Of a stretch of DNA of 64,000 nt, positions 5,347-42,376 are shown one piece after another. The position numbers and the translations under genes were made by a program. Positions within the stretch are counted from its first letter, which is position 1. Every line of letters begins with the position of its first letter. The notes beneath the pieces are model-generated. The model searched no databases, had not been told where the DNA came from, and saw only the letters and a list, made by a program, of their open reading frames with translations. The DNA comes from Escherichia coli (GTDB lineage Bacteria; Pseudomonadota; Gammaproteobacteria; Enterobacterales; Enterobacteriaceae). The stretch is taken from assembly GCF_024298765.1 (NCBI RefSeq), contig NZ_CP101210.1. The stretch is one strand, 5' to 3'.

Positions 5347-6569
5347 GCGAGTTGACTTATCTGGAAAAATTGCTGGATGGGGTTAAGGTTGAGTGGCAAA
5401 CACTAGGGAAAGTGCTTAAACGAACTAAAGGCACAAAAATAACCGCTGGGCAGATGAAAGCTCTTCACAAAGATAATGCGCCGCTTAAAATTTTTGCAGG
5501 AGGGAAAACAGTAGCCTTTGTTGACTTTAAAGATATACCAGAGAAAGATATTAATAGAGAGCCATCGATTATTGTTAAATCCAGAGGTATTATCGAATTC
5601 GAGTATTACGATAAACCATTCTCTCACAAAAATGAGATGTGGTCATATCACTCAAATAATGATGCGATAAGCATAAAGTATATTTATTACTTCCTAAAAA
5701 TAAATGAAGGATATTTCCAGAAAATTGGGGGTAAAATGCAAATGCCACAAATTGCAACTCCTGATACAGATAAGTTTGAAGTTCCAATCCCCTGCCCGGA
5801 TAATCCGGAAAAATCCCTTGCCATCCAGTCTGAAATCGTTCGGATTCTGGATAAGTTTACTGCACTTACCGCTGAGCTTACCGCTGAGCTTAATATGCGT
5901 AAAAAACAATACAACTACTATCGCGACCAGTTACTGAGTTTTGAGGATGGTGAGGTTGAGTGGAAGGCGTTAGGGACTATATGCCAAATTGGCGATGGCA
6001 ATCACTCATCAAAGTATCCTAAGGCGAATGAAATGATTGAGCAGGGGATACCCTTCATTCGTGGTACCAATATGGTGAATGGTACAATATGCAATCAAGA
6101 TATGAAGTACATATCTAAAGAAAAACACAATGAACTAAAAAAGGGGCATTTAAAAGCATTTGATGTTTTGATAGCTAATAGGGGAGAGGTTGGGAAGGTA
6201 GCATATGTTCCAGAGGGATATTCTGGATCTAATTTAAACTCCCAGTTAGCATGGCTTAGAGCCAACCCGGAAATTATCATTAATAGATATTTATTTTTCA
6301 TTCTTTGCTCATCAACCATACAGAATAAACTTTCTGGTGAAGGAGGGGCATTACAACAACTTACTATCAAGAACATAAAAAACATTCAGATACCTGTTCC
6401 ATCAATAACCGTTCAGAGCAATATCGTATCTTTTTTGGACAAGTTCGACTCGTTAACCAACTCAATCAGTGAAGGCTTGCCACGTGAAATCGAGTTGCGC
6501 CAGAAACAATACGAGTACTATCGTGATTTACTGTTCAGTTTCCCAAAACCTGATACTGTCAGTAATTAA
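5343..6569 (+). CDS. hsdS: Type I restriction-modification specificity subunit HsdS, type IC family, two target-recognition domains
   Basis: 408 aa; central conserved region [27 protein letters not shown] and C-terminal repeat [15 protein letters not shown]; the TAEL tandem repeat is the type IC (EcoR124I-family) hallmark. Confidence 0.85.
5868..5891 (+). repeat. 2 x 12-bp in-frame direct repeat (accgctgagctt) encoding TAEL-TAEL in the HsdS central spacer region
   Basis: Read directly in the sequence; in type IC HsdS the TAEL copy number sets the spacer length of the recognition site (EcoR124I vs EcoR124II). Confidence 0.85.
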
Positions 6570-6690
6570 TTGACCATTGCTACCGACCGGGCCACCTTAA
6601 CACCCGGTCTGTATATAGACTATTTTTTACGCGCCGGAAGTCACTCTTAACGCCCTTCCGGCCCTTGCCAGGCGGCACAAAGGATGCGCT

Positions 6691-9600: not shown

Positions 9601-9807
9601 GAAGAAAATCTCAATGAAGAGGCGGCGAAACGCTATATTCGCACATCTTTAAAACGCGAATACGCCACCGAAAATGGCACGGAATTAAACGAGACACTGC
9701 CCAGACTCAGTCCTTTAAATCCGCAATATAAAACGAAAAAACAGACTGTTTTTCAAAAAATTAGCGCATTTATTGAAAAATTTAAGGGGGTGGGTGGAAA
9801 GATTTAG
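6691..9807 (+). CDS. hsdR: Type I restriction endonuclease subunit HsdR (SF2 helicase/nuclease)
   Basis: 1038 aa; helicase motifs TGSGKT and DECHRSQ; RBS aaagga before the ATG; gene order M-S-R as in type IC systems. The TAG stop sits directly against the IS5 end. Confidence 0.9.
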
Positions 9808-11003
<1,196 letters not shown>

Positions 11004-19688: not shown

Positions 19689-20170
19689 TCAAAAACCGCT
19701 GTAGCCAAAGTTACGCTGGCCTGATGCTTTAGTGTCGAGCTTCGTCAAATAATCCAGACGTACCAATAAGCGCTGGTACTGCTCTGGGAAATCAGGCTCG
19801 TTAATATCCAGGATGTAACGTCCATTAGCAGGGAAATGAACTAATCCCTGGTGATCTTCCAGTTCCAACCCTAAGGCACTGTACCAGGCTCCGGTAATTA
19901 ACCCTCTCAGTGTGTCAGAGCGCTCATAGTTTCCCAGGTGGTAATAGGCGTCTTTGTTAAAAAAAGGCAGACGTGATAATGACATTTAAAGGACTGCGTA
20001 TATTCTTTCGCCCAGATAATACAAACCGCCGTTGCGTAGGTGCGTTTGCCTTGTTGTTTTTTACTGTGTTGATCTGCATTAATTTTCGCATTCAGCGAGT
20101 TACGGAAACGAGATATCTCTCCGGGGATCAGGTTAGGGAAACAGGTAATGATATCCCCGTTGTCAATCAC
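19689..20170 (-). pseudogene. Hypothetical gene, apparently frameshifted (two overlapping minus-strand ORFs 20170->19907 and 19985->19689)
   Basis: Two same-strand ORFs overlap in different frames between IS1 copy 1 and IS2; no family recognised. Could be unrelated spurious ORFs. Confidence 0.25.
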
Positions 20171-20260
20171 AGGAGGGTAATGGAGATCCCCCCGTATTGC
20201 TGTTATTCTGGAAGTGTTTTTAATATTCGTATTGATAGTTCTCAGAGATTGGATTTGCCC

Positions 20261-23463: not shown

Positions 23464-24918
23464 ATGATGGAGAGCATTAATAATCAAGTGCAGTCGGTAC
23501 GCCAGTTGCTGGCCATTCCCCAACTGGCCATCCCAAGCTATCAGCGACCTTACCGCTGGGGCTCCAAGAATATCTCGGATCTCTTTACCGATTTGGCAAC
23601 CCATCAGGACAAGAGCGCCTACCGGCTGGGCTCGGTGGTGTTTCATCAGCACACCGATAGTGAGCAGGGCGAAATGCTTGATATCGTCGATGGTCAGCAA
23701 CGCACCCTGACCCTGATGTTGACCGTCAAGGCGCTGATCGAGGTGCTGGATAACGAAAATCGCAGTGGCAAAGAGAAGAGTATCCGGTTTCAACGTCAGG
23801 ATCTGCGTGAGCAATTGCAGGTCTTGCGTGGACCTATCGATGCGTTTATGCAGCGCCAGCGCTTCCCCAGCCGGGATTCGGAGTTCAACCTCAGACGTAA
23901 CTATCTGGAGTTGCGTCGGCTGGTGGCCCGCCCTGAGTTTGACGAGCAGCAAATTGACTTTCTGCTCAACCGCTGTCAGGTGGTCTGCTTTGTACTGCAG
24001 GATATCTCGGAGGCGTTCCAGTTCTTCGATTCGCAAAATGCCCGGGGGCGCGATCTGGCTCCTCACGATCTGCTCAAGGCATTTCACCTGCGCGAGTTTG
24101 CCGGTCATGAGGCCAATCTCAAGGCCGAGGCGGTCGCCCATTGGGAGCGCCTGCCAAGCGACGAGCTGGCCAATCTGTTCGCCCTCTATCTCTATCGGGT
24201 ACGCCAGTGGGCCGAGGGCAAGTCGGCCCGCTACTTTGGCAAGGGGGAGGTGGATCTCTTCAAGGGGGTCAACCTAGATCGGGTAGGGCATTATCCTTAC
24301 GTGGAGTCGCTGCGCATCGCCCACCACTTTGTCGATGAGTACAACAGCCAGTACCAGCGCAAGATTGACGGCCAGTACATGACGTTTCCCTTTCATCTCG
24401 ACCAGATGATCATCAATGGTCGGCGCTTTTTCGAGATGGCCGAGTACTACCAGACGCGGGTGGCCGCCATCGTGGCCGAGGAGTCTGATTCCGGCAAGGC
24501 GCAATCTGCCACCCTGCTCGGCGAAACGCTGACACCGATGGCCAGCAAGGTGCTATCGACCCTGGGCAGCTACGAGCGTCGCCACCGCACCGGGGATCGT
24601 TATGTGCGGGCCATGTTCGACTGCGCCCTGATCTTCTATATCGACAAGTTCGGCAGCCAAGGGCTGTCACTGGCCATCGAGAAGTGCTTTATCTGGGCCT
24701 ATCGCTGCCGCATCCGCCAGCAGGTAGTGCAGTTGGCAACCATGGATAACTATGTGCTGGAGCACAATCTGATCCGTGCCATTCGTGATGCTCGTCTGCC
24801 GGGAGATCTGCACGGCTTCCCTTTGCCTAGCATGAGCAGTCGAGAGAACAAGAACAATCGCAATGGTGCCGAAGATGAGCTGGTCGGGCTGTTTCGGGAG
24901 ATGAAATATTATGAATGA
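23464..24918 (+). CDS. DUF262 (ParB/Srx-like NTPase fold) protein; candidate defence component, GmrS-like
   Basis: 484 aa; DUF262 signature [10 protein letters not shown] ... [13 protein letters not shown] and [18 protein letters not shown]; RBS aggagg before the ATG; 3' end overlaps the next gene by 8 bp. Confidence 0.75.
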
Positions 24919-26953
24919 TGCAGGCGTTCGCCCCTTTTCCATTCGTGCACTGCTTGAAGATCGCGCCCGCTATCTGGTGCCCATGTACCAGCGCAACTAT
25001 GCCTGGGGTGAGGGAGAGATCACCCAGCTGCTGCAGGATGTGCTGGATTATCAGCAAAAATTGGTCAGTGGTAAGGGGCCGCAAACCTACTATATCGGCA
25101 CCCTGGTGGTGTTTGCCCGGGACGATGGCAGTTTCGAGGTAATCGATGGCCAGCAGCGCTTTACTACCCTCTCTCTGCTGGCCAATTGGCTCAAACATCA
25201 CGCGATAGATTCGGTGGATATGAGCTGGTATCAGACCATCAACCTCGCTTTTGAGAGTCGCCCGATATCGAGCCATACCTTCGAGCGCTTATGGCAGGGG
25301 GTTGCCCCCGACGATTTGCGGGGGAGTACCTTCAATGAAGGTTTGGTGAACGGTTTTGAGCTGATTGGCAAGGCAATGGCGGAGCTTGGTTTGGTAGGGG
25401 CTAAACTGACGGCCTTTTGCGACTACCTCTTCAAGCATGTGCAGATCTCTCGTATCGAAGTACCCAAGGATACCGATCTCAATCACTTCTTCGAGGCGAT
25501 GAACAATCGCGGCGAGCAGTTGGAAAAGCATGAAGTGATCAAGGCGCGGCTGATGGAGACGCTGAACCAGATACCCGAGGAAGAGCATCGTCGCCAAAGT
25601 ATTCATATCCTGACCCGGGTATGGGATGCCTGCGCCAATATGGAGCGCTATATCCAGTACGGCTTTACCCCGCAAGAGCGCCACCGTCTGTTTGGTGAGA
25701 GCGACTGGGGTCAGTTTGTGCCCCGTGATTTTGCCCATCTGCTTGATCTGCTAGGATCCCCAAACACGGCCGACGCTGCCGATAAAAGCCGTGCAGCTGC
25801 CGGTAGCCAAGGGCGCACCTTGTTGGCCATTTTGCAGGATGACAAGCTTGATGGTGAGCAGACGGTGGAGGAGGAGAGCGCAGGCTCCGAGCGCTTTAAC
25901 AGCGTCATCAACTTCTCCAACTTCTTGCTCCATGTGCTGCGACTCGTGAGCCGCGACCCGGGTAATACGGAGGGGGTGCCGCTTGATGATAAACAACTGG
26001 TCGATCAGTTTGAGCTGCGAGTGATAAGGCAACCGGATCCAGTAGCGGCAGTTCAGCGTTTTATCTATGGCCTGTTAAAGAGCAAGTATCTGTTTGATCA
26101 GTTCATCATCAAGCGCGAGTTTGCCGATGGCAAGGATAGTTGGAGTCTGAAGCGGCTGCACTGGTATTCGGAAAAGAGCGTCAGTTACATCAATACCTTT
26201 GACAAGGATGAAAATGAGAATGGTTTCTCTGGTGTTAACCGGCGGGTCCTGATGTTGCTGTCGGCGTTTCATGTGTCGACCCCGACCCTGGTTTACAAAC
26301 ATTGGCTGAATGGTGCACTGAGATATCTGTTCGACAATTGTCACCCTGATCAACCGGTGGATGCCGGGGCTTATCTGTCCTATCTGGAGAGTCAGGCTCG
26401 CCGCTTTGTCTTCCAGCGCTTTTTAGCGCCTGGTGAAGGGGCTTCCTATTACCAGATGCTCTACCTTGATAACGCCCTGTTGCCCGCCATCAATGTGGAT
26501 GAGAGTTGGCACAAGGTGATTACATCCAAACTTCGCTTCGGTCATATCGAGAACAACTTTGTCTTCAACTTCCTCGACTATCTGCTGTGGGTACGAGATC
26601 GGAATAGCGACAAAGTTGCTGGCTCCTTTGAGTTCACTTTCCGCAGCTCGGTGGAGCACTTCTCACCCCAGCATCCGATGGATGGCTATAAACCGGTTGA
26701 GCAGAGTGCACTCCATTCGTTTGGCAACCTTTGCCTTATCAGCCACAGCAAGAACTCGCGCTTGAGTAACTTCCAGCCGCAACAGAAGCAGGAGCACTTT
26801 GAAGCAAGCCTTGCCAATAACCAGACTGATAGTCTTAAATTGCTTGCTATGATTCGGCTGATGAAAGATAAAGGTCGTTGGCTGGAAGATGAGATAGCTG
26901 TGCATCAACAAGATATGTTGCAGGTCTTACTATCCAATCAAATTCAGCAATAA
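24911..26953 (+). CDS. DUF262-DUF1524 two-domain protein (GmrSD-like type IV restriction-enzyme architecture: N-terminal NTPase, C-terminal His-Me finger nuclease)
   Basis: 680 aa; N-terminal YQRNYAW ... [11 protein letters not shown] and [17 protein letters not shown] (DUF262); C-terminal [14 protein letters not shown] ... [17 protein letters not shown] (DUF1524-like). Confidence 0.75.
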
Positions 26954-27023
26954 CGGATTGAATCTGTTGGTGATGCTGCCAACTTACTGATTTAGTGTAT
27001 GATGGTGTTTTTGAGGTGCTCCA

Positions 27024-27299
27024 GTGGCTTCTGTTTCTATCAGCTGTCCCTCCTGTTCAGCTACTGACGGGGTGGTGCGTAACGGCAAAAGCACTGCCGG
27101 ACATCAGCGCTATCTCTGCTCTCATTGCCGTAAAACATGGCAACTACAGTTCACTTACACCGCCTCTCAGCCCGGTACGCACCAGAAAATCATTGATATG
27201 GCCATGAATGGCGTTGGATGCCGGGCAACCGCCCGCATTATGGGCGTTGGCCTCAACACGATTTTCCGCCATTTAAAAAACTCAGGCCGCAGTCGGTAA
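27024..27299 (+). CDS. insA: IS1 InsA
   Basis: 91-aa ORF, one substitution (L to F) relative to copy 1. Confidence 0.9.
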
Positions 27300-27721
27300 C
27301 CTCGCGCATACAGCCGGGCAGTGACGTCATCGTCTGCGCTGAAATGGACGAACAGTGGGGCTACGTAGGTGCTAAATCACGTCAGCGCTGGCTGTTTTAC
27401 GCGTATGACAGGATACGGAGGACGGTTGTGGCGCACGTCTTCGGTGAACGCACTCTGGCCACACTGGAGCGTCTTCTGAGCCTGCTGTCGGCCTTTGAGG
27501 TCGTGGTATGGATGACGGATGGCTGGCCGCTTTATGAATCACGCCTGAAGGGAGAACTGCACGTTATCAGCAAGCGATTTACGCAGCGCATTGAGCAGCA
27601 TAACCTGAATCTGAGGCAGCATCTGGCAAGGCTGGGCAGGAAGTCACTGTCGTTCTCAAAATCGGTGGAGCTGCATGACAAAGTCATCGGGCATTATCTG
27701 AACATAAAACACTATCAGTAA
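27218..27721 (+). CDS. insB: IS1 InsB
   Basis: 167-aa ORF overlapping insA. Confidence 0.85.
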
Positions 27722-27736
27722 GTTGGAGTCATTACC

Positions 27737-27964
27737 CAGCTCATCGCGCAGTGAGCCAAAATCCGCATCTGAAGCACGGTCAAAAAGGTAATCCAGTTTG
27801 CGATTTACGTCGCTCAGCTGGTTGGTAACTATTTTCAACCCGGACTCCAGATCACCTGGGCCAGCTTCAAGGCAGCGCCGCAGATACTCTGACCGATTAC
27901 CACCTGAAACCAGGTCTATATAGGCCAAAAGTTCATCTGATACTTTTGCGGTTATTGTTGGCAT
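27737..27964 (-). pseudogene. Ribbon-helix-helix (CopG/Arc/TrwA-like) DNA-binding protein gene, 3' end interrupted by IS1
   Basis: MPTITAKVSDELLAYIDLVSGGNRSEYLRRCLEAGPGDLESGLK...: beta-strand then two helices as in RHH proteins; after ~76 codons the frame runs into the IS1 end (ORF 27656..27964). Confidence 0.5.
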
Positions 27965-28302
27965 CCAGTCCTCACTTTGTGCATTTTTTAAACGAAAAAA
28001 GGGTGTCTAATACGGTGAAATCATAGTATTACCAAAGTAATAAATAAAAATTGTTTTAAATCAGTAGGTTAGATTAGATTTGTAATGCCTGGGTAATACC
28101 GCAGCATGGCTAAATTTGGTTTTTTTTCTTTTAAATCAGTTGGATAGCGTGATTTATCACGCTGCGTTAGGTGTATAGCAGGTTAAGGGATAAAAAATCA
28201 TCTTTTTTTGGTAGGGCGATCTCCGTAGGTTAAGGGTCATTTGGCTAAAAAGCGTCCTATTCTTTGATGGTCATGCTTGCATGACCATCTGAGCAACCAA
28301 AA

Positions 28303-28448
28303 ACTACAGATAAACTACAGATAAACTACAAAAAACGTTTTGCCTTAGTATTGGAAGACTACAAATAGACTACAATAAAACTACAAAGAAACTACAAAAA
28401 ACATGACAGACTACAAATAGACTACAAGAATACTACAGATAAACTACA
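28303..28448 (+). repeat. Iteron array: 11 copies of ACTACA(A/G) in 11-bp register, three clusters (3+4+4); candidate centromere-like or operator site
   Basis: ACTACA at ~28303, 28314, 28325, 28358, 28369, 28380, 28391, 28410, 28421, 28432, 28443; preceded by a perfect palindrome gatggtcatgcttgcatgaccatc (28266-28289); just upstream of the StbA-like gene. Confidence 0.8.
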
Positions 28449-28509
28449 AAACTCGATTGACCCCTTCTTACGAGTGTTGTAGAGTCATTTTCATACAACG
28501 GAGGGGGTT

Positions 28510-28896
28510 ATGAATAAACCAGCAGATCTGAAACCCCGCAACTTATCGGCTGCTGTCAGATTGCGCCTAAATGAAATCGAGAACTGGCTGGACAGAGGGC
28601 TAACGCGGCATGAAATTGCTGAAATCCTCGACAGCGAATACAGCTTTTCGGTAACAGCCAAAGGGCTTGAGATGGCACTGTATAGAACGCGGCAAAACCG
28701 AAAAAATGTATTGCACAATACACATGATAAGAGTAGCGCGAAGGGTGCAGCGGAAAGTGTATTGCACAATACACAACCGTCTGAGCCTGAAGCGCAGGAA
28801 AGTGAAAAAGCAGAGAGTCCCGGCATTATTGATAAAGAATTCTTCAATAAAATCGGTGAGAATTTCGACCCTAAGAAGTTCAACAAAAAATTCTGA
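28510..28896 (+). CDS. Small putative DNA-binding protein, candidate iteron-binding partition adaptor (StbA/ParR-like); function inferred from context
   Basis: 128 aa; RBS ggaggg 6 nt before the ATG; directly downstream of the iteron array and upstream of a ParA-like gene fragment. Confidence 0.4.
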   Translation: MNKPADLKPRNLSAAVRLRLNEIENWLDRGLTRHEIAEILDSEYSFSVTAKGLEMALYRTRQNRKNVLHNTHDKSSAKGAAESVLHNTQPSEPEAQESEKAESPGIIDKEFFNKIGENFDPKKFNKKF

Positions 28897-28904
28897 GGTG
28901 ATTT

Positions 28905-29091
28905 ATGAAAGTAGCGGTAATTAATTACAGTGGCAGTGTTCGTAAAACCTTAATTTCATCTTACCTGTTAGCTCCGCGCCTGACTGGTGCAAAGTTCTAT
29001 GCGGTAGAGACTATCAACCAGTCTGCTTCCGATCTGGGTATTGAAAATGTGACCAGTTTTAAAGGTGACGACTTCTCACGTTTGATTGAGG
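28905..29091 (+). pseudogene. N-terminal fragment of a ParA/StbB-like ATPase gene, truncated by a solo IS1 end
   Basis: MKVAVINYSGSVRKTLISSYLLAPRL... resembles a deviant Walker-A start; ORF ends at 29096 where the IS1 terminal sequence begins. Confidence 0.4.
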
Positions 29092-29123
29092 GGTAATGAC
29101 TCCAACTTACTGGTAGTGTTTTA
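29092..29123. mobile_element. Solo IS1 terminal-repeat remnant (~32 bp)
   Basis: ggtaatgactccaacttactggtagtgtttta matches the IS1 end (ggtaatgactccaacttattgatagtgtttta) with 2 mismatches, then diverges. Confidence 0.7.
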
Positions 29124-29173
29124 GCGAAGTTAAGTGACACAATAGTTTAATCTGGAGGAATTAATGAAGAGTT

Positions 29174-32113
29174 ATGAGTAATTTTAATTTTCTAACAGAC
29201 ATCAGCCCTGAACTCGCTCAATTTGGTAAAAGTGCCGAGCTGTATTACCATGATGATAAGCAGGTAGCACTAGTGAAACTTAGGTGTTTTACTGAAGTAG
29301 TCGTTGGGGAAATTTATTCACGTTTATCGCTAACCCCACCTGTTCGTGATGATTTATATAATCGACTGCGCAGCTACGAATTCAAGGACGTTGTCAGTGA
29401 TAAGGGAATCTGGGCCAAATTAGATGTATTGCGACATAAAGGTAACAAAGCCGCCCACTCTAGCAATGGTTCAGACGAGATTTCCCTCAATGAAACACTC
29501 TGGTTAATCAAAGAAGCTTATTTAGTCGCCCGTTGGTATGCTCAAGCTATTCTCAATAAGCCTATCACTCCGCCAGAGTTTGTTGATCCGGTAAAACCTA
29601 TCGATCATACATCTCGCTTAGAAGCAGAGTTAGAACGGCAACGTCAAGAACTCAATAAACGAGAGGCTGAATTAAAGACCCAGCTTGCTGATAATAGTGA
29701 TAAATATCAACAACAGACGAGTGAGCTAATAGCTCAACTAGACGAAAAAAACGACACACTTTCCAATGTAAAAAAAGAGCAAGCACTATTACAGATTGAA
29801 CTTGAACAAAAACAAAAAGATCTAGTCGCTTCACAACAAGCCTTCTTTGATTACAGGACGCGTGAAGAGTTTAAACAAGCTAGTATTTCATCAGCTTCAA
29901 GCTTTGATCTTGATATGGAAGTGACGCGCCGAAATATTGATATATTTGATTGCTTTGAAGGAGTAAGTTTAACTAAAGGTCAAAACCAAATAGTTAAGCA
30001 AATAAATGAGTTTCTAACCGATACCAAACAAAACGTATTTTTACTTAATGGTTATGCAGGTACAGGTAAAACATTTATAACTAAAGGAATTACTCAGTAC
30101 CTAGAAAGAATTGGTCGTGAATTCGCTATTATGGCCCCGACGGGGAAAGCCGCGAAAGTGATATCAGACAAAACAATGCAACCTGCCAGCACTATTCACC
30201 GCGTGATATACAATTACGACAACGTGAAAGAGTACAAAGTTGACGGTGTGGAAGGGTCTGAAACTTATCGTTGCTATGCTGACCTTAAAGTCAATGTAGA
30301 TACTGCCGAAGCTGTTTATATAATTGATGAAGCGTCAATGGTTTCTGACAGATATTCCGATGGTGAGTTTTTTCGTTTTGGGAGCGGATATTTATTAAAA
30401 GACTTGCTCAAGTACATAAATATTGACCACAACGATCATAATAAGAAAGTTATTTTTATTGGTGATAATGCACAGTTGCCACCTGTTGGAATGAATACGT
30501 CACCAGCGCTAGATGCCAGTTACCTTAAAGAAAATTATCAAGTCGCTGTGGCTTCAGGGCACTTGACTGAAGTTGTTCGTCAAAAAGGTGATAGTGGTGT
30601 TTTGAACAATGCTGCCATGTTGCGTGACGGTTTAGAGCAAAATCTTTTCAATAAACTGAAATTTGAAGTTAATGATCATGATGTATTTAATTTGTCCTCG
30701 GAAAATCTACTTAGCACTTATCTAGACTCATGTGATAGAAAAGTTAGCCGTACAGGAGAAAGTATTATTATTGCTTCTTCAAACCGACAAGTAGCTGAGT
30801 ATAACCGTTTGGTTAGAGAGTACTTCTTTACTGGTCAACAGCAAATGGTCGCGGGAGATAAAGTCATTTCGGTAGCAAATCACTATCGAGCAGACGCTTG
30901 TATTACCAATGGTGAATTTGGAATGATCAAGGAAGTACTATCTCCTCATTCTGAGTTGATTAGTGTTGACATTAGCGTCAAAGGTGACACTGGTGACATG
31001 GTTAAGCGAAAAGTAAATCTGAGTTTTAGGGATGTGATTCTAGGCTTTCGCAACGACTACGGTGAACCATTCTTCTTTGAAGCCAAAATTGTAGAAAACC
31101 TACTTTACAATGATCAGCCGACCTTATCGTCAGATGAGCACAAAGCACTCTATGTTCACTTTTTAAATCGACACCCAGAACTGAGACGTAAAGGTAATGA
31201 ACAAAAGCTTAGAATTGCATTATTGCAAGATCCTTATTTCAATGCTTTTAAACTTAAGTTTGGTTATTCCATTACTGGACACAAAGCACAGGGTAGCGAA
31301 TGGAAAACTGTTTTCTTACAGTGTCAAACACACCAAAAAGCCTTAACTAAAGATTACTTCCGCTGGTTATACACCGCTATAACGAGAACTTCTGGCATCC
31401 TGTATGTAATGAATCCACCTCAGTTGCGCTTAGGAGATGGAATGAAAATAGCAGGAGCGTACCAACCCAAAGCAGTAAACCTAGACAATTCTGCTCCTGA
31501 AGGCGTTGAGGTTGTGCGACCAAGTACCGAAGCAACGAACTCAGTAGCCACAGCGAAGTTTGATTTTCAGACTGACATCCCGCAACTTAAAAAGCTATAC
31601 CAACTTGTTGATGCATGTATTGAAGGTACAGGGATTACTGTAGTGGATGTCCTTCATTATAACTATCAAGATCGTTACATCTTGCAGCGCGGGAATGAGC
31701 AGGCTTCGATAAGTTTCAATTACAAGGGTAACTGGAAAGTGTCTGGCGTAAAGAGCATTACTCAAGATGGGTTCGATGTTGAACTCATGGCTTTGCTTGG
31801 TCAATTAGAAGGTACTTTGCTCGATGTACCTGAGCCTTCAAAGGATACTCAGTTCCATTTTTCAGAGCCATTCTTAGAAGAGTTTTATCTAAATGTAATG
31901 GATCAAATCAACAGTGTTGGAGCTGATATAAGCAAAATTGAATCTCGTTCATTTTGTGAAAGATATGCATTTGTTAAAGGCAATGAGTTGGCGGTAATTG
32001 AGTTTTGGTACAACAAGTCTAGCCAGTTTACTAAAGTTCAACCTATGCCTCAGCTTAGTAATTCCACAAGGCTCATTGACGAAATAATATGTCAAATAGG
32101 TGTGCTTCTATGA
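29174..32113 (+). CDS. Large SF1B (RecD/Pif1/Dda-like) helicase with an uncharacterised N-terminal helical domain and a coiled-coil linker; candidate defence effector/sensor
   Basis: 979 aa. Helicase motifs: Walker A NGYAGTGKTF, IMAPTGKAAKV, Walker B IIDEASMV, motif III VIFIGDNAQLPPV, motif V/VI SITGHKAQGSEWKTVFL. N-terminal ~130 aa contains LDVLRHKGNKAAHS (possible DUF4145/HEPN-like R-x7-H); residues ~140-230 are a heptad-rich E/Q/K/L segment. No relaxase motifs. Confidence 0.75.
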   Translation: MSNFNFLTDISPELAQFGKSAELYYHDDKQVALVKLRCFTEVVVGEIYSRLSLTPPVRDDLYNRLRSYEFKDVVSDKGIWAKLDVLRHKGNKAAHSSNGSDEISLNETLWLIKEAYLVARWYAQAILNKPITPPEFVDPVKPIDHTSRLEAELERQRQELNKREAELKTQLADNSDKYQQQTSELIAQLDEKNDTLSNVKKEQALLQIELEQKQKDLVASQQAFFDYRTREEFKQASISSASSFDLDMEVTRRNIDIFDCFEGVSLTKGQNQIVKQINEFLTDTKQNVFLLNGYAGTGKTFITKGITQYLERIGREFAIMAPTGKAAKVISDKTMQPASTIHRVIYNYDNVKEYKVDGVEGSETYRCYADLKVNVDTAEAVYIIDEASMVSDRYSDGEFFRFGSGYLLKDLLKYINIDHNDHNKKVIFIGDNAQLPPVGMNTSPALDASYLKENYQVAVASGHLTEVVRQKGDSGVLNNAAMLRDGLEQNLFNKLKFEVNDHDVFNLSSENLLSTYLDSCDRKVSRTGESIIIASSNRQVAEYNRLVREYFFTGQQQMVAGDKVISVANHYRADACITNGEFGMIKEVLSPHSELISVDISVKGDTGDMVKRKVNLSFRDVILGFRNDYGEPFFFEAKIVENLLYNDQPTLSSDEHKALYVHFLNRHPELRRKGNEQKLRIALLQDPYFNAFKLKFGYSITGHKAQGSEWKTVFLQCQTHQKALTKDYFRWLYTAITRTSGILYVMNPPQLRLGDGMKIAGAYQPKAVNLDNSAPEGVEVVRPSTEATNSVATAKFDFQTDIPQLKKLYQLVDACIEGTGITVVDVLHYNYQDRYILQRGNEQASISFNYKGNWKVSGVKSITQDGFDVELMALLGQLEGTLLDVPEPSKDTQFHFSEPFLEEFYLNVMDQINSVGADISKIESRSFCERYAFVKGNELAVIEFWYNKSSQFTKVQPMPQLSNSTRLIDEIICQIGVLL

Positions 32114-33534
32114 ATGAGCCAGCTAATCGTACAGTAAATAATTTGAGAAAGAGCGGAGACCTGCAAGGGGCTTGGGAGTTTGGTTTTCAAGCGTTGCAGG
32201 CAGCTCCCCAAGATACTTACTTGAAAGGTGCTTTATTTTGGGTGTGTTATGAGTTTCTTAAGCACCAGCTTGAAAATCTAAATAAGCGAGCGAGTTCTTC
32301 AAACAACTATCGTCCTACTGATTTTGAATTTGAGCAAATAGAGAACTTGCTGCAAACCATAGTAAATTTAGATATTGCTACTGGCGGCCTAGAGTACAAA
32401 ATGCTGCTGGTTCAGTTTAAGAAGAGTTTGGAATGGTTTCCAACCTTGATTCACCTTGTGCTTCGACATCAAACTGTACTATTTGATGATGAGGCTAAAA
32501 CACCTTTTCAAGCTGAAAAAGGTGAAGTGCCAAGTTTGATGCTCTCAACAGCACGCCAAGTGGCGAGTGCATGGCTTAGAGCACGAGAGTATTGGCATCT
32601 AGATCTTAACCAAGTGATGGCATTTATTAACCAAACACGCGAGCAAGCCTCTGACACTAAACATATGATGTGGCTTGATTACGACCAAGCGAAGTGCCTT
32701 GTTGTTGCGGGCCAATACGATCAGGCTCGCGAACTCATTCTACCCATTTTAAGAAAGAAGCAAAAAGAGTCTTGGGCTTGGGGAGCGTTGGCTGCTACTT
32801 ATTCAAAACAAGATCAGCGTTTAGCAATGAAGTTTTTTGCTAGGGGAATAGTATCCGCACATGACGTTACTTTTAGTTTACGTTTATTACAGGGAATTAT
32901 TCCTTTATTACTTGCAAATCAACAGCAAGCTGAAGCCTCAATGTGCCTAAAAACGGCTATTGCGGCTTATCAAGCCCATGGGTGGAAGCTAAAGCAAGAG
33001 CTAGAACAGCTATCTATGCAGGCTTGGTATGATTCTGGTGTCGATGAGAAGCAACTGAGTCCTTTTTTAAACTCTATTTCTCACGACGCTTTAAATTACT
33101 TGCATGGGCCGATGGAGAAGGTTGTTGCTATCGTAGAGAATATCCATAAATCCGGTAAAGGCTTTCAAGTATTCGTAAATAAGTCGACATCACTATCAGT
33201 TCGCATGGGGGTTCATAAAGGTAAGCAGAAACCTCAGGCTGGTGACTATGTCGAGCTATCCGTAGCGAGTGTTGATGGAAACAAAGAAGTAGTAGCTTCC
33301 TCATCGTCCAAGCAAGTAGATATGGCTGATGTTTCGTATGTAGAGGGTACGCTTCGAATAGCACCCAAAGGCTTCGGATTTGTCGAGGATACTTTTGTTC
33401 CTCCCTTTGTTATAGGTAATTTAAAAAATGAAACAAAAGTCAGAGCACTCCGTATCATGAGTTGGGACAAATCTAAAGCTCGCCACAACTGGAAAGCGAT
33501 TAAGTTAACGGAACTAAATTTTAATGAAGACTAA
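32110..33534 (+). CDS. Uncharacterised protein with N-terminal TPR-like helical repeats and C-terminal cold-shock/OB-fold-like region, translationally coupled to the helicase
   Basis: Start at MNEPANRT (ATG 32110, overlapping the helicase stop; ORF-track start 32089 rejected); C-terminal ...GTLRIAPKGFGFVEDTFVPPFVI resembles the GFGF cold-shock/S1 motif. Confidence 0.65.
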   Translation: MNEPANRTVNNLRKSGDLQGAWEFGFQALQAAPQDTYLKGALFWVCYEFLKHQLENLNKRASSSNNYRPTDFEFEQIENLLQTIVNLDIATGGLEYKMLLVQFKKSLEWFPTLIHLVLRHQTVLFDDEAKTPFQAEKGEVPSLMLSTARQVASAWLRAREYWHLDLNQVMAFINQTREQASDTKHMMWLDYDQAKCLVVAGQYDQARELILPILRKKQKESWAWGALAATYSKQDQRLAMKFFARGIVSAHDVTFSLRLLQGIIPLLLANQQQAEASMCLKTAIAAYQAHGWKLKQELEQLSMQAWYDSGVDEKQLSPFLNSISHDALNYLHGPMEKVVAIVENIHKSGKGFQVFVNKSTSLSVRMGVHKGKQKPQAGDYVELSVASVDGNKEVVASSSSKQVDMADVSYVEGTLRIAPKGFGFVEDTFVPPFVIGNLKNETKVRALRIMSWDKSKARHNWKAIKLTELNFNED

Positions 33535-33591
33535 GTCACTTTCCGGCGAAATCGAGTTAGGACAGGCTCAAGAATTAGCCGAGGTCGAATA

Positions 33592-33688
33592 ATGGCAACC
33601 CGAGTAGAAATGATTATCGAAACGCTCAAGGCGAACCCCGACAAGAAGTTTACTGCTCGGGACTTAGCCAAAGAATTTGTGCTTCGAT
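33592..33688 (+). pseudogene. First 32 codons of a third gene (winged-helix / HARE-HTH or Mrr-N-like N-terminus), truncated by the IS903-like element
   Basis: RBS gagg 7 nt before ATG 33592; MATRVEMIIETLKANPDKKFTARDLAKEFVLR then the frame enters the IS terminal repeat at 33689. Confidence 0.45.
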
Positions 33689-34745
33689 GGCTTTGTTGAA
33701 TAAATCGAACTTTTGCTGAGTTGAAGGATCAGATCACGCATCTTCCCGACAACGCAGACCGTTCCGTGGCAAAGCAAAAGTTCAAAATCACCAACTGGCC
33801 CACCTACAATAAAGCCCTCATCAACCGTGGCTCCATAACTTTCTGGCTGGATGATGAAGCTATTCAGGCCTGGTATGAGTCAGCAACACCTTCTTCACGA
33901 GGCAGACCTCAGCGCTATTCTGACCTTGCCATCACGACTGTGCTGGTCATTAAACGCGTATTCAGGCTGACCCTGCGCGCTGCGCAGGGCTTTATTGATT
34001 CCATTTTTTCTCTGATGAACGTTCCGCTACGCTGCCCGGATTACAGCTGTGTCAGCAGGCGGGCAAAGTCGGTTAATGTCAGTTTCAAAACGCCCACCCG
34101 GGGTGAAATCGCACATCTGGTGATTGATTCCACCGGGCTGAAGGTCTTCGGTGAAGGCGAGTGGAAAGTCAAAAAGCATGGCCAGGAACGCCGCCGTATC
34201 TGGCGTAAGCTGCATCTCGCCGTTGACAGTAAAACACATGAAATCATCTGTGCAGACCTGTCGCTGAACAACGTTACGGACTCAGAGGCCTTCCCCGGGT
34301 TAATCCGGCAAACCCACCGGAAAATCAGGTCAGCCGCCGCCGATGGCGCTTACGATACCCGGCTATGTCACGATGAACTGCGGCGTAAGAAAATCAGCGC
34401 GCTTATCCCTCCCCGAAAAGGTGCGGGTTACTGGCCCGGTGAATATGCAGACCGTAACCGTGCAGTGGCTAATCAGCGAATGACCGGGAGTAATGCGCGG
34501 TGGAAATGGACAACAGATTACAACCGTCGCTCGATAGCGGAAACGGCGATGTACCGGGTAAAACAGCTGTTCGGGGGGGCACTGACGCTGCGTGACTACG
34601 ATGGTCAGGTTGCGGAGGCTATGGCCCTGGTACGAGCGCTGAACAAAATGACGAAAGCAGGTATACCTGAAAGCGTGCGTATTGCCTGAAAACACAACCC
34701 GCTACGGGGGAGACTTACCCGAAATCTGATTTATTCAACAAAGCC
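33689..34745 (+). mobile_element. IS903/IS102-like element (IS5 family), ~1057 bp
   Basis: Inverted ends ggctttgttgaataaatcg (33689-) and the reverse complement ...gatttattcaacaaagcc (-34745); single transposase ORF; flanking 9-mers tgcttcgat / gttgccaaa do not match. Confidence 0.85.
33766..34689 (+). CDS. IS903-family transposase
   Basis: ORF 33721..34689 (322 aa from the track start); 307 aa if started at GTG 33766, the size I recall for IS903 transposase. Confidence 0.8.
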   Translation: MAKQKFKITNWPTYNKALINRGSITFWLDDEAIQAWYESATPSSRGRPQRYSDLAITTVLVIKRVFRLTLRAAQGFIDSIFSLMNVPLRCPDYSCVSRRAKSVNVSFKTPTRGEIAHLVIDSTGLKVFGEGEWKVKKHGQERRRIWRKLHLAVDSKTHEIICADLSLNNVTDSEAFPGLIRQTHRKIRSAAADGAYDTRLCHDELRRKKISALIPPRKGAGYWPGEYADRNRAVANQRMTGSNARWKWTTDYNRRSIAETAMYRVKQLFGGALTLRDYDGQVAEAMALVRALNKMTKAGIPESVRIA

Positions 34746-35282: not shown

Positions 35283-35846
35283 TCAGTTATGTCGTGGTCG
35301 GCCGCGGTTACTTTTTTCGGGAAGCCTGCTACGGCCCAGAATAATACCGTGTTCTTTCTGATCTTGTTTAGCCAGATAGCTAAGGGCGTAACGTAAGTCG
35401 TCTACCGCAGACTTATCACTATAGTGAATCACGTGATCGATACGCACCGGGTATTTATCTTTAGCCCGGCACAGGTGAAAATAACCCTCCCCTTCCGTGA
35501 TCCGCCTCCAGATATCCCCCAGTTGCCTGGATATCTGATAAGAGTTCTTGTGACGTTGCCCATCCAGATAGCCGATAAAATGAATATGAAGCCCTTTGTC
35601 TGGTGTATATTCCATAACCCAGTAATATCCTGCCAACATCGTCTGGGTTTCGCTAAGTAAACGGTATATTTCCATACACATACTGTGCTTACAGGAATGC
35701 CCGAAACTGGGCGTGTCTTTCCTGTAGGCAAAATCAATTCTGAAAGGTAACAGTTTAGAAAAACGTTGAAACAATCCCTCCATGTGTTCATTCACATCTT
35801 TCAGAATCGCGAAATTCATTTCGTAATTGGGATTGGCATTATACAT
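35283..35846 (-). CDS. YagK/YfjJ-family protein (CP4-type island conserved gene)
   Basis: 187-aa ORF; family assignment from memory of CP4-57/CP4-6 gene content and its position next to the yfjI-like and alpA-like genes. Confidence 0.45.
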   Translation of the reverse strand: MYNANPNYEMNFAILKDVNEHMEGLFQRFSKLLPFRIDFAYRKDTPSFGHSCKHSMCMEIYRLLSETQTMLAGYYWVMEYTPDKGLHIHFIGYLDGQRHKNSYQISRQLGDIWRRITEGEGYFHLCRAKDKYPVRIDHVIHYSDKSAVDDLRYALSYLAKQDQKEHGIILGRSRLPEKSNRGRPRHN

Positions 35847-36735
35847 TTTATAGTCCTTACTTTATAAAATTCACAGGAAGAGGGAATTACGTAAATACTG
35901 AGAGTACATAAACGCCGTACCACGGCATTAATAAACGAGGTAACCAGCAGTACAGACAACCTGATAAAACTGTTTTGTATTACCGCATCGCTGTAACAAG
36001 GTAATACTTCAGAATTCAGTGAGGCTCTCTTAAACAGAGGACCAGTAATAATTACAATGGCAAAAACACACCTCAATATAATTGAATTTAAGAAAGCACC
36101 ATTCAATCACTTACAGGAAGTAATCTGATCTTCACAAAAGTCAGCTATCGAATAGCCACAGGCAACACCGCTATTGATACCCCACACACCATAAGAAGAT
36201 TATTCCATACAGAAAAAATTATATTTACCCATACTTATAAACTGTAACGGAGCTATGACGTACGAACTAAAGACACTACACTCTAATAGAGTTCTGGTAC
36301 CTAACCAGTGTTAAATACGAACCAGACATACATTCTATGGATTAATTTTCTCAATATTACGCTATGAGTGTAGTAACATAATTTACACCACATACACCAC
36401 CACACTGTAGTTAGTATATGGGGAGACATTACGATAAAAAGAGATAAGTTATACCACAGATACCACCACACAATACCATAACTCCCATTAATAATACTAA
36501 TTAACCTAAATTATTTATTGAATACGAAAACAATGAAGGTCCCACCTCACCTCAGACTAAAGCCGACAATATCCTGAGCAACACTCTATCCAATAGTAAA
36601 TAGTGGTTACACCAGTTATATTTACTGACTGACCTGTACCAGAGTTTTCTAATACAACAACGCTGACATGGTAAAGGCATTAGTCTCCTCCGCAAGTAGC
36701 AGAGGAGACTATATGTTACTCAACGATTAAGTCGT

Positions 36736-38187
36736 TCAGAGGTCAAAGTTAGGTGCGACACACAACGTTTTTCCCTCAATAACCGGTACAACTCTGTTTT
36801 GTTCATACAGTAAATCCAGTAACCAGTTGATTTTATCCTTTTTCCGGAAACGGTTCGGACCACGCTGTAAAATATCATTTTTTTTCATACAGGGGATCCC
36901 CTTCTCAATGCAATAGCTTTTTATCCAGTTGAAAAGTTCAAGCTCCTCTGGAATGAGTCGCACAGGTACGGTCAGGGCAGGGTTGTCAAAAGTTAACGGA
37001 TTAGACAACCGCACATACTCATTACCGTACCATATTGCTAATTCTCTCGCCATTTCTGCAGTGTAAGGGGAAATGTCCCCCTCTTCACCGCTCGAATGGT
37101 GAATAAGTCCTGCCAGTCTTGCCATATACTCTGCATTTTTAGCAGCATATTCCCGGCAATGTCTTAAAGGCCCCAATCCCCCCAGCTTCGATTCCACATC
37201 GTTGTAATAATCCGTCCAGATTCTGGCAGCCTGAGGAGAAAAGTGAAGGCAACGTCGTTCACCACTCATCGCCAGATTTTCATCAATAAGCTCATTGATC
37301 CTCTGTTCAAACAAATCCTGATACTGTGATGAATAATTATCTCCGGTTATTATCCTTGTCCCCTGCGTTGATGTTGGTTGACACATCAAAAACCTTGCAT
37401 GATGTCCTGACGTTTTCACAAGTTCTTTTTTTCGCGTACAAAAACCTTTCTGGTAAACATCAGGCTGAATCATCACCGATACCGTCAGTCTTGGATCCTT
37501 CAAAATAATTCCGGGAGATGATTTCCTGTCGATGAAAAGAGAACCACCATCCCACAAAGAGTTAAGTATTCCAAGTTTACTCATTGCCCGGCCATCAAAA
37601 ATTATTCCTCCTTCACTGGATACAAGAGCAAAAGAGCGATTGCTGTCGGAATAATATTTTAACATTCCCTCTATCGTTGTCTCATTGAAAATTGTCCGGC
37701 GTATCTGCGGCGGAACAGGACATTTATTCAGATGTCTTTTAAGCTCTGACTCTGTTGCCTTACAATCTTTACCGGCGCGAATTTCTTTATGCAATTTTGA
37801 CTCCAGTGCTTTTTGCTTTTGCTCCCATATTTCCTTTTCTGTACTGTAATTCTCAACCAGTTTCGCGTATTCTTCCGCCAGGGCTTCATCCCTGAGATAA
37901 AATGCTTTCATAAACACTTTATCCACGGTCGTTTTCCTTTCACCGGAATCAGCCAGAATCAGAGAGTAAAGATTAACAGGCCCACGTAAATTTCCAGGTC
38001 TGCACACGTCAATCTGATTCTGACAGGCACTTGAGAACGCTGTTAATGCGGATGTCGCCACCATAGCCAAAGGTGCCTGTGTATTTTTTTGAGTTTCAAT
38101 TATTGCATTTCTCACCAGCGGTGGTAGTGCATATACCGGATAAGGATTTTCTGGTGCAAGTAAGCACATAAAAGCCTCTCTTTTCAT
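36736..38187 (-). CDS. YfjI-like protein (DUF3987 family), CP4/P4-type island conserved gene
   Basis: 483-aa ORF (alternative start at MCLLAPENPYP, 38169); synteny alpA-yfjI-yfjJ on the same strand as the tRNA, as in CP4-57. Confidence 0.5.
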   Translation of the reverse strand: MKREAFMCLLAPENPYPVYALPPLVRNAIIETQKNTQAPLAMVATSALTAFSSACQNQIDVCRPGNLRGPVNLYSLILADSGERKTTVDKVFMKAFYLRDEALAEEYAKLVENYSTEKEIWEQKQKALESKLHKEIRAGKDCKATESELKRHLNKCPVPPQIRRTIFNETTIEGMLKYYSDSNRSFALVSSEGGIIFDGRAMSKLGILNSLWDGGSLFIDRKSSPGIILKDPRLTVSVMIQPDVYQKGFCTRKKELVKTSGHHARFLMCQPTSTQGTRIITGDNYSSQYQDLFEQRINELIDENLAMSGERRCLHFSPQAARIWTDYYNDVESKLGGLGPLRHCREYAAKNAEYMARLAGLIHHSSGEEGDISPYTAEMARELAIWYGNEYVRLSNPLTFDNPALTVPVRLIPEELELFNWIKSYCIEKGIPCMKKNDILQRGPNRFRKKDKINWLLDLLYEQNRVVPVIEGKTLCVAPNFDL

Positions 38188-38399
38188 TAATGGGTTAGTA
38201 AAGCAGCAGCAACTCCCGCTATAATAGCGAAATAGCTGCTGTTCAGACCTAATGTTCTGAGAAATACAGAATATCTGTAGATCTGATGTTTAATAAACCG
38301 ATAAGGTTAATTCAGTTCATACTGTGTTATTTACCACGAAATATCATTCATGTTTCTCATTCTTAACACCTCCTAAAATTATTTCACTAACACCTTCCC

Positions 38400-38645
38400 C
38401 CCGGTCTTTTTCCTTTCTCAGGAATCAGCCAGAACCATAGTGTAAATATTAACAGGCCCACGTAAATTTCCAGGTCTGCACACGTCAATCTGATTCTGAC
38501 AGGCAATTGACATCGCTGTTAATAATGATGTGGTAGTCATAGCCAGAGATGCTTTTTCATTGTGTTGAGTTTCAATTATTGCATTTCCAGTCATTGATGG
38601 TTGCGCATATACTGGATACGGAGTATCCGGTTTGATGTAAGACAT
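38400..38645 (-). pseudogene. Diverged partial duplicate of the 5' end of the yfjI-like gene
   Basis: 38400-38645 is ~85-90% identical to 37935-38187, including a 57-bp identical core; 75-aa ORF MSYIKPDTPYPVYAQPSMTGNAIIETQ... parallels the yfjI-like N-terminus then diverges. Confidence 0.6.
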
Positions 38646-38750
38646 AAATATTTCCTTTTTTCGTAATAACTTTCGGTTATAGCAGCTATTTCCGCTACAA
38701 TAGCAACAATAGCTGCTATACAGACTGGATATACTGAAAATACAGACAGT

Positions 38751-38999
38751 TCATCTGGTCTGTATCCAGCAAAGAAGGTCACTTAACAACCATCCGCAAG
38801 ATTTCTTTCCGATAGACTTACGTGGTGGAAATTTTCCCTCCCGTTCAAGTTTCCACGCTTGTGTACGAGAAATTGACGTGATCTCATATCGTTCCTTTTC
38901 ACGTACCAGTCTGTCGCATTCAATCCCATAAGCTTTCAAAATGACCAGACGCTGTTCATCTGTTAATGGAAGCCACATACTACCCTCCTGATATATCAA
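38751..38999 (-). CDS. alpA: AlpA-family phage/island transcriptional regulator (MerR-like HTH)
   Basis: 82-aa ORF; C-terminal ...ITSISRTQAWKLEREGKFPPRKSIGKKSCGWLLSDLLCWI matches the AlpA pattern. Confidence 0.6.
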   Translation of the reverse strand: MIYQEGSMWLPLTDEQRLVILKAYGIECDRLVREKERYEITSISRTQAWKLEREGKFPPRKSIGKKSCGWLLSDLLCWIQTR

Positions 39000-42300: not shown

Positions 42301-42376
42301 TGGTGCCGATAATAGGAGTCGAACCTACGACCTTCGCATTACGAATGCGCTGCTCTACCAACTGAGCTATATCGGC
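42301..42376 (-). tRNA. thrW: tRNA-Thr (anticodon CGU)
   Basis: Reverse complement gccgatatagctcagttggtagagcagcgcattcgtaatgcgaaggtcgtaggttcgactcctattatcggcacca: cloverleaf with anticodon loop attCGTaat, T-loop ggttcgactcc, encoded CCA. Confidence 0.95.

Follow-up and report, generated by a model that had tools for sequence, protein, structure and literature searches.

A probable TOTE (PDC-M16) candidate defence pair, carried into the thrW island of Escherichia coli within an insertion-sequence-bounded segment of plasmid origin

Our analysis concerns a pair of adjacent genes, A and B, in a 64,000-nucleotide stretch of Escherichia coli DNA (RefSeq assembly GCF_024298765.1, contig NZ_CP101210.1), the whole of which we refer to as the window. 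Annotations were taken from the chromosome of E. coli 2020CK-00188, which is 100% identical to the window, and which places the pair in a setting of a tRNA-Thr gene next to proA, two DUF262 genes and a broken N6-methylase gene. An earlier, sequence-only reading had described this thrW-side setting correctly, and the open-reading frames (ORFs) of A and B, their overlap, the stub of a third gene, a 5-codon mini-ORF and the helicase core that it described are likewise all present. The two genes and the domains of A are as follows; further loci used for comparison are cited by L numbers where they must be told apart.

29174..32113, + strand: TOTE-A (PDC-M16A), 979 aa (PADLOC and Pfam matches)
29174..29563, + strand: HEPN (DUF4145) domain of A, aa 1-130
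29609..29848, + strand: coiled-coil-like linker of A, aa 146-225 (composition)
29969..31408, + strand: superfamily 1B (SF1B; RecD/Pif1/Dda-like) helicase core of A, aa 266-745 (Pfam, PDB sequence matches, motifs)
31580..32089, + strand: two TBP-like domains (TBP-TOTE) of A, aa 803-877 and 898-972 (Pfam PF22721)
32110..33534, + strand: TOTE-B (PDC-M16B), 474 aa (PADLOC, Pfam, AlphaFold2 (AF2) model, Foldseek)

Protein A matches the PADLOC model for PDC-M16A (PDLC04472) over nearly its whole length (E = 0, 1348 bits; residues 2-975 against 4-924 of 930). Its N-terminus had been suspected of being DUF4145/HEPN-like, and this was borne out by Pfam, which places DUF4145 at aa 20-113; the region has the four-helix fold of the HEPN superfamily to which the DUF4145 family belongs, and carries the motif R87-x2-G90-N91-x-A93-x-H95, invariant in 13 homologues whose identity there falls to ~33%. 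The helicase core is covered by AAA_30 (1.9e-24), AAA_19, PIF1 and UvrD_C_2, with Walker A GTGKT (aa 296-300), Walker B DEAS (385-388), GDNAQ (430), HKAQG (703) and TAITR (734) all intact, and the TBP-TOTE family (PF22721) is found twice downstream of it (E 2.6e-19 at aa 803-877, 2.8e-19 at aa 898-972). Between HEPN and helicase lies a linker, variable in length among homologues, whose residues 146-225 are 55% E/K/Q/L, and which from its composition alone may be a coiled coil. A word-indexed homology search with aa 1-261 of A gave two near-identical fragments and nothing further.

Protein B is matched by the PADLOC model PDLC04480 with equal completeness (E 1.7e-251; residues 1-469 against 1-469 of 472), and Pfam identifies in it DUF7017 (188-327, 6.4e-40) and S1CSD-TOTE-2 (411-466, 8.8e-18). 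In the AF2 model (predicted local distance difference test, pLDDT, 92.3) a TPR-like alpha-solenoid (aa 1-332) is followed by beta-barrels at 335-399 and 408-468, the second of which matches S1CSD-TOTE-2, and whose S1/cold-shock (CSD) OB domain contains the motif GFGFVED; the earlier description of B as a TPR and OB protein thus holds. Foldseek searches with the model returned generic TPR proteins only, and a PDB sequence search with B gave nothing significant.

The stop codon of A and the start codon of B overlap (ctATGA, B ATG at 32110), and in all 17 homologous loci the two genes either overlap by 1, 4 or 8 nt or are separated by a gap of at most 16 nt, which supports the translational coupling proposed for them. 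Both long ORFs are conserved among homologues at 41% to 99% identity, so that neither is a chance ORF. No third gene recurs beside the pair in the 17 loci, and in Aeromonas veronii A and B stand alone, inserted between formate dehydrogenase genes and fdhD. The N-terminal domain of A is HEPN in 13 loci, and is replaced by NERD in Vibrio hibernica (L023, A at 7249-9990; Pfam 1.4e-7) and by a domain similar to the NERD type in L028 (A at 4698-7619); such swapping of N-terminal effector domains is typical of immune systems. The TPR-OB family to which B belongs comprises 871 clusters at 50% identity (E up to 1e-10).

TOTE systems, named for TPR, OB, TBP and Effector, are predicted conflict systems credited to Aravind, Iyer and Burroughs 2022 in PMC12458937. 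The components that define them are found here: a protein with TPR and S1/cold-shock OB domains, TBP-like domains, an effector linked to TBP, and operonic linkage, the putative effector being the HEPN/DUF4145 domain together with the SF1B helicase on the same polypeptide as TBP. Adjacent genes matching the PDC-M16A and PDC-M16B hidden Markov models, which define the PADLOC candidate system, are likewise present. On these sequence matches the pair is almost certainly an intact two-gene TOTE module, equivalent to PADLOC candidate PDC-M16, and a typical member with no structural difference. The PADLOC and Pfam scans upheld one half of the sequence-only reading, a helicase-centred candidate defence module (a PDC-M16 match with defence-island neighbours), and overturned the other half, that the architecture was a novel one without a name: PDC-M16 covers it end to end and Pfam holds its TOTE domains. 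The family is already catalogued, and a standard PADLOC or Pfam scan suffices to identify the module.

Several other identities for A were tried and rejected. PDB sequence matches of A are to SF1B cores only (RecD2 3e1s, E 4.9e-13; Dda 3upu, E 5.4e-8), and the NCBIfam RecD2 model (TIGR01448; E 6.1e-43) gives 147 bits against a cut-off of 500 bits, so that A has a related helicase core and is not a RecD2 orthologue. A conjugative relaxase-helicase (TraA/TraI) was dismissed, as the Pfam scan found no relaxase domain and TraA_Ti (TIGR02768) matches the helicase region only (E 1.1e-8, 33.9 bits against a 590-bit cut-off). Residues 1-256 match the N-terminus of EcoKI-type HsdR (NF008521, E 2.4e-28, 98.7 bits; cut-off 729 bits) and A also matches PADLOC REase_I (E 9.2e-11); A is not a type I HsdR, since only these N-terminal 256 residues match and the remainder is SF1B helicase. 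Local matches of 50-165 residues each to Nhi (5.3e-5), AbiO (3.7e-5) and Mokosh (MkoA, 5e-4) are at the level of the P-loop only, and neither A nor B matched Gabija or Hachiman in the PADLOC scan; the earlier statement that the pair is none of Gabija, Hachiman, Nhi or a relaxase is correct.

Comparison with known systems places the pair among relatives in fold and layout. TOTE systems often carry RNase H effectors according to PMC12458937, whereas the subfamily here has HEPN and an SF1B helicase. TALON, as described in PMC12458937, has TPR-CSD and TBP genes in common with TOTE, but combines them with a YprA (superfamily 2, SF2) helicase and a NERD nuclease and is largely from Chloroflexota; the helicase here is SF1B. 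RecD2, Dda and Pif1 share the core motifs with TOTE-A, which falls below the family cut-offs, adds HEPN, the linker, the TBP-like extensions and an obligate TPR-OB partner, and stands outside RecBCD. RnlA/LsoA, the RNase LS abortive-infection toxins of E. coli, are arranged TBP1-TBP2-HEPN; A has the reversed domain order with a ~480-aa SF1B helicase and a linker inserted, the similarity does not go beyond fold, and the partner is a TPR-OB protein instead of a small antitoxin (RnlB or Dmd). PrrC/RloC, often within type I restriction-modification (R-M) operons, would resemble TOTE-A as an NTPase fused to a HEPN nuclease (PMC3710099), but PrrC is a single gene whose ATPase is of the ABC type and whose HEPN is C-terminal; in TOTE-A the motor is an SF1B helicase, HEPN lies at the N-terminus, TBP-like domains are added and the partner is a TPR-OB protein. 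Like TOTE, TgvAB of Vibrio cholerae VPI-2 forms a two-gene module in a type I R-M operon; its host is a marine gammaproteobacterium, and protection requires both genes. It is validated and gives a precedent for such embedding, but it is a GmrSD-like type IV restriction system, unrelated to TOTE in sequence and domains.

The homologues sit in a defence-island setting. They are not consistently outside defence islands; many lie in R-M or defence neighbourhoods, and in L005, L020, L023, L024, L026 and L034 A and B are embedded in a type I R-M operon or adjoin one. The order is hsdM-hsdS-A-B-hsdR in V. hibernica (L023), hsdR-hsdM-hsdS-A-B followed by a PD-T4-1-like protein and DruH in V. jasicida (L024), PDC-M72A/B-A-B-hsdR in Shewanella sp. 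1CM18E (L026), and hsdR, two DUF262 proteins, then A-B in Cedecea colo (L034), while in L025 an hsdM-like sequence lies upstream of the pair and the neighbouring HsdR has the same kind of N-terminus as A. Elsewhere the neighbours include PDC-M72A/B and RT_UG34 directly downstream (A-B-PDC-M72A/B-RT_UG34 in Shewanella sp. Isolate11, L021), a DUF4011 helicase and a reverse transcriptase (V. breoganii, L014) and Cas1 and Cas2 (Endozoicomonas, L017); across loci they are drawn from PDC-M72, DRT reverse transcriptases, DruH, Cas1/Cas2 and DUF262 proteins.

In the window, the pair is enclosed by remnants of other elements, which record how it arrived:

26969..27739, + strand: insertion sequence (IS) IS1, left end of a 7.8-kb module (26969-34745) (annotated IS1 family transposase; alignment with L003)
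28510..29096, + strand: stbA (28510-28896, WP_001039463.1) and a 63-aa ORF (28905-29096, WP_000861580.1), neighbours of plasmid origin, outside the system
29091..29123, + strand: solo IS1 terminal inverted-repeat remnant, GGTAATGACTCCAACTTACTGGTAGTGTTTTAG, left edge of the captured fragment
29126..29173, + strand: 48-bp leader of A, with GGAGGA at 29154-29159 and the start of the mini-ORF
33531..33592, + strand: 3' tail of hsdS of a type I R-M system, encoding ...SLSGEIELGQAQELAEVE stop (95.6% identity to L007)
33592..33688, + strand: first 32 codons of hrgA (COG2958/DUF511; full-length homologues)
33689..34745, + strand: IS903B, right end of the module, truncating hrgA (inverted repeats at 33689 and 34728-34745; annotated IS903B transposase)

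The third gene begins at 33592, but the inverted repeat of IS903B, GGCTTTGTTGAATAAATC, interrupts it at 33688/33689, so that 32 codons are left. TOTE homology to other loci ends at about 33506-33515, and the DNA that follows has another source: positions 33531-33688 are 95.6% identical to L007 9940-10097, which is the end of hsdS and the start of hrgA; in the window the hsdS tail runs into hrgA through a TAATG stop/start overlap. Because of this match to an hsdM-hsdS-hrgA-hsdR operon, the stub and the 57 bp before it, earlier read as a spacer with an RBS, are relics of a type I R-M system. Rebuilt from a longer copy on an E. marmotae IncY plasmid (L005), gene 3 encodes a 311-aa protein, which a homology search assigned to HrgA, with intact homologues of 309-314 aa (up to 98% identity); the HrgA/COG2958 family has 3064 matches (E up to 0.001), which are 278-320 aa long among the matches listed. 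The family is predicted to combine a winged helix (winged helix-turn-helix, wHTH) with a PD-(D/E)xK nuclease (PMC3045609), and the full-length protein had no match in the Pfam or PADLOC scans. The closest intact copies of hrgA lie in hsdM-hsdS-hrgA-hsdR operons with no TOTE genes nearby. In L005 (8483-9986) hrgA is full length with an in-frame TGA at 8852-8854, and downstream of it the first ~180 codons of hsdR are kept, up to an interruption by IS30. The arrangement resembles an earlier stage of this captured fragment, with less erosion.

The captured fragment is 4.5 kb long, lies between the IS1-end remnant and IS903B, and has 40% GC against 49% for the window. Its left edge is the solo repeat GGTAATGACTCCAACTTACTGGTAGTGTTTTAG, which matches the IS1 end at 27700-27739 and IS1 ends in L005 and L006, terminates the 63-aa ORF downstream of stbA and abuts the fragment; an IS1 was once present at 29091-29123 and was later deleted. 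The whole of 26969-34745 is colinear, in one piece, with an IncR plasmid locus (L003), and further copies of the module are carried by IncFIA plasmids, IncY plasmids and a repA/parAB plasmid that also has a baseplate gene. Plasmids bearing the module come from Klebsiella, E. coli and Enterobacter and are of several replicon types; an IncHI2 plasmid carries A and B in a different context. Among 5426 complete E. coli genomes 42 contain the pair, in copies that are >99.8% identical. The closest chromosomal relative, in Shewanella chilikensis JC5 (L020 7041-11579), shares 97.2% nucleotide identity with window 29150-33688 and has the order A, B, hsdS tail, intact hrgA, start of hsdR, and by sequence this points to a Shewanella-like chromosome as the putative source of the enterobacterial plasmid cassette. 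The alignments show that the module reached the thrW island inside an IS1-to-IS903B segment derived from a plasmid, and is not native cargo of the island as had been supposed.

Beyond the ends of the module lie genes of the island itself. To the left of IS1, at 23467-26953, two adjacent DUF262 (GmrSD-like) genes stand near N6-methylase fragments and transposase genes; this pair belongs to the thrW island and is outside the plasmid-derived module. To the right of IS903B, in the direction of the tRNA-Thr gene (42301-42376), the region 35283-38978 encodes an inovirus Gp2-type protein, YfjI, a fragment of a DUF3987 protein and an HTH-type regulator, and a second, frameshifted gene of the inovirus Gp2 family is found at the far left of the island (19689-20254). 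The Gp2, YfjI, DUF3987 and HTH set looks like the backbone of a satellite or integrative element.

The mini-ORF ahead of A (MKSYE, 29164-29181) has 5 codons, is unremarkable by itself and overlaps the helicase ATG at 29174; it had been read as a leader peptide coupled to A. Homology of the leader begins at 29126 relative to L006 and at 29150 relative to the Shewanella locus L020, where GGAGGA falls in the final codons (S-G-G-I-N stop) of a 260-aa ORF that lies upstream. The mini-ORF ATG is absent from this 97%-identical Shewanella locus, the arrangement is absent as well from L019, L013, L014 and L015, and the TAA stop of the mini-ORF follows necessarily from the conserved codons for Met-Ser-Asn in A, ATGAGTAAT. 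A conserved leader peptide was rejected on these grounds; since the Shine-Dalgarno sequence lies 14 nt from the A ATG, the mini-ORF may aid translation of A in the enterobacterial copy.

As for what the pair does, the genomic context makes a role in defence rather likely, and the mechanism can be sketched by analogy. The TBP-like domain of RNase HIII positions RNA-DNA hybrids. In RnlA (TBP1-TBP2-HEPN) the first TBP domain is needed for substrate binding and HEPN is active only as a canonical dimer (PMC8266594). The A-B pair would be an anti-phage or anti-mobile genetic element (MGE) system, in which the TPR surface and OB folds of B would sense an invader protein or single-stranded nucleic acid, the TBP-like domains of A would anchor it to a substrate of RNA or RNA-DNA hybrid, in the manner of RNase HIII and RnlA, and the SF1B helicase would provide ATP-driven loading and translocation. 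Two A subunits paired through their linkers would bring together two HEPN domains to form an active RNase, and the cutting of RNA by this dimer would halt infection, probably at the cell's expense. This particular sequence of steps is tentative; TOTE identity, capture by IS elements and an anti-phage mechanism taken together form what we regard as a probable explanation of the locus.

Several observations weigh against this explanation. The R-to-H spacing in the HEPN motif of A is 7 residues, against the canonical R-x4-6-H, a motif described as 'mostly conserved (80%)' in DUF4145 (PMC3710099), and because of this non-canonical spacing RNase activity is not assured. The N-terminal effector domain is missing from A of L017 (Endozoicomonas), L033 and L034 (Cedecea colo), and as some homologues do without HEPN, the domain is not essential to the core machine. 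The fragment retains only 48 bp of native upstream DNA, with no promoter-like site found between 28896 and 29174. On the Salmonella Senftenberg plasmid pATCC43845 (L006, IncHI2), a 1-bp deletion in the first codons of A (AATTTTC to AATTTC, at about 4065-4095) makes the annotated ORF start later, a sign of module decay by which TOTE is, judging from the reading frame, probably inactivated there. Spread within an IS-bounded plasmid module could be hitch-hiking, with no need for selection for defence. Finally, the searchable literature yielded no experimental test of TOTE or PDC-M16, and PDB sequence searches yielded no solved structure of a TOTE protein.

These points bear on four rival accounts, two of which question whether the module acts here at all or acts alone. 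On one of them the pair would be a silent passenger, intact in its ORFs, unexpressed, and carried along by IS1 and IS903B traffic; the short native upstream region and the lack of a promoter-like site, the frameshifted Salmonella copy and the near-identity of the copies, which indicates recent spread and therefore little time for selection, all fit this account. Set against it, both long ORFs are intact in inspected copies from several genera, and expression, which without a promoter-like site next to A would rely on read-through from stbA, is plausible, promoter-like sites being present upstream of stbA (28403-28485) and no strong terminator-like site being found between stbA and A; we consider a silent passenger unlikely. 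We attach a similarly low probability to a guard or accessory of the PrrC kind, latent under a type I R-M system or cooperating with it and firing when a phage disables R-M, in which case the E. coli copy, having no R-M partner, would be inert or deregulated. The repeated embedding of the pair beside hsdM, hsdS or hsdR, the homology of residues 1-256 of A to the EcoKI-type HsdR N-terminus, the N-terminus of the same kind in the neighbouring HsdR of L025, and the HEPN domain that A shares with PrrC (PMC3710099) speak for such a guard. However, pairs stand alone with no R-M nearby in Aeromonas, Psychromonas, Endozoicomonas and enterobacterial plasmids, which argues against strict dependence on R-M, the R-M operons beside the pair represent different families of type I, and TgvAB, like other validated embedded systems, does not depend on the R-M genes around it.

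The other two rivals are both far weaker. That A directly follows stbA on many plasmids and resembles RecD/TraA-type helicases could suggest that A is a housekeeping helicase serving plasmid conjugation, replication or stability, and that B assists it by binding DNA. The adjacency to stbA was, however, made by IS1 insertion, as the remnant at 29091-29123 records, for which reason we rejected a functional linkage to stbA; the carrier replicons are unrelated (IncR, IncFIA, IncY, IncHI2 and the repA/parAB plasmid), homologues in their natural setting are found on chromosomes, within defence islands, the Pfam scan shows no relaxase domain, and HEPN or NERD effectors are ill-suited to such a role, so that this account is highly improbable. 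Even less credible is the three-gene operon of the sequence-only reading, in which the HTH gene lost to IS903 would be a missing effector or regulator and the system here incomplete. The stub does lie on the same strand, 57 bp after B, its intact form would be a wHTH and PD-(D/E)xK protein, and the order A-B-hrgA recurs in the Shewanella locus L020 and on plasmid L005. Yet the 57 bp are an hsdS tail, and together with the stub match an operon that is free of TOTE; in the TOTE loci L018 and L019, which are 90% identical, B is followed by unrelated DNA, of more than 20 loci just L005 and L020 have hrgA after B, the PADLOC definition of PDC-M16 comprises A and B alone, and no PADLOC model recognises the gene-3 protein. 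We therefore rejected gene 3 as a TOTE effector, given its hsdS/hrgA identity and its lack of recurrence in the 17 loci.

The hsdS tail itself may explain how modules such as TOTE are exchanged. In or beside type I R-M operons, the TOTE pair and other embedded genes are bordered by copies of this conserved 3' tail (...LLSGEIEL...), and the motif has 10 matches in 382 kb against 0 in a shuffle. Copies lie at:

window 33531-33592
L020 6250-6273, 7003-7023, 11430-11450
L021 7012-7035, 11430-11450
L023 7028-7051, 11409-11432

This layout suggests that cassettes are swapped by recombination at the hsdS tail, with stop/start coupling preserved. PDC-M72A/B is found directly after TOTE in L021 (11473-13274) and directly before it in L026 (5325-7105), an occurrence on either side that fits modular cassettes in one hotspot. 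The 260-aa ORF directly upstream of TOTE-A in L020 (6277-7059) has an hsdS-tail-like end and may be another embedded cassette. A broader and more speculative proposal, which we hold to be doubtful, joins these observations: type I R-M operons of Vibrio, Shewanella and relatives would contain an hsdS-adjacent exchange hotspot, in which each module, so far TOTE, PDC-M72, hrgA and the 260-aa ORF, would bring its own hsdS tail, thereby keeping translational coupling and supplying homology for the swap. The E. coli fragment would be one such cassette caught by IS elements, and TOTE an autonomous HEPN-helicase immune system reading RNA or RNA-DNA hybrids through its TBP-like and OB domains.

For TOTE/PDC-M16, an immune system known from prediction, we found neither a published functional test nor a solved structure. 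The copy described here is intact, measures just 4.4 kb and is native to E. coli and Klebsiella, and would thus lend itself to a first test in a model host. The layout with flanking hsdS tails gives a hint of the way in which type I R-M operons may reshuffle their defence cassettes. The module travels on clinically common plasmids (IncR, IncFIA, IncY, IncHI2), and if it is active, it could shape the phage susceptibility of clinical strains, which would be relevant to phage therapy.

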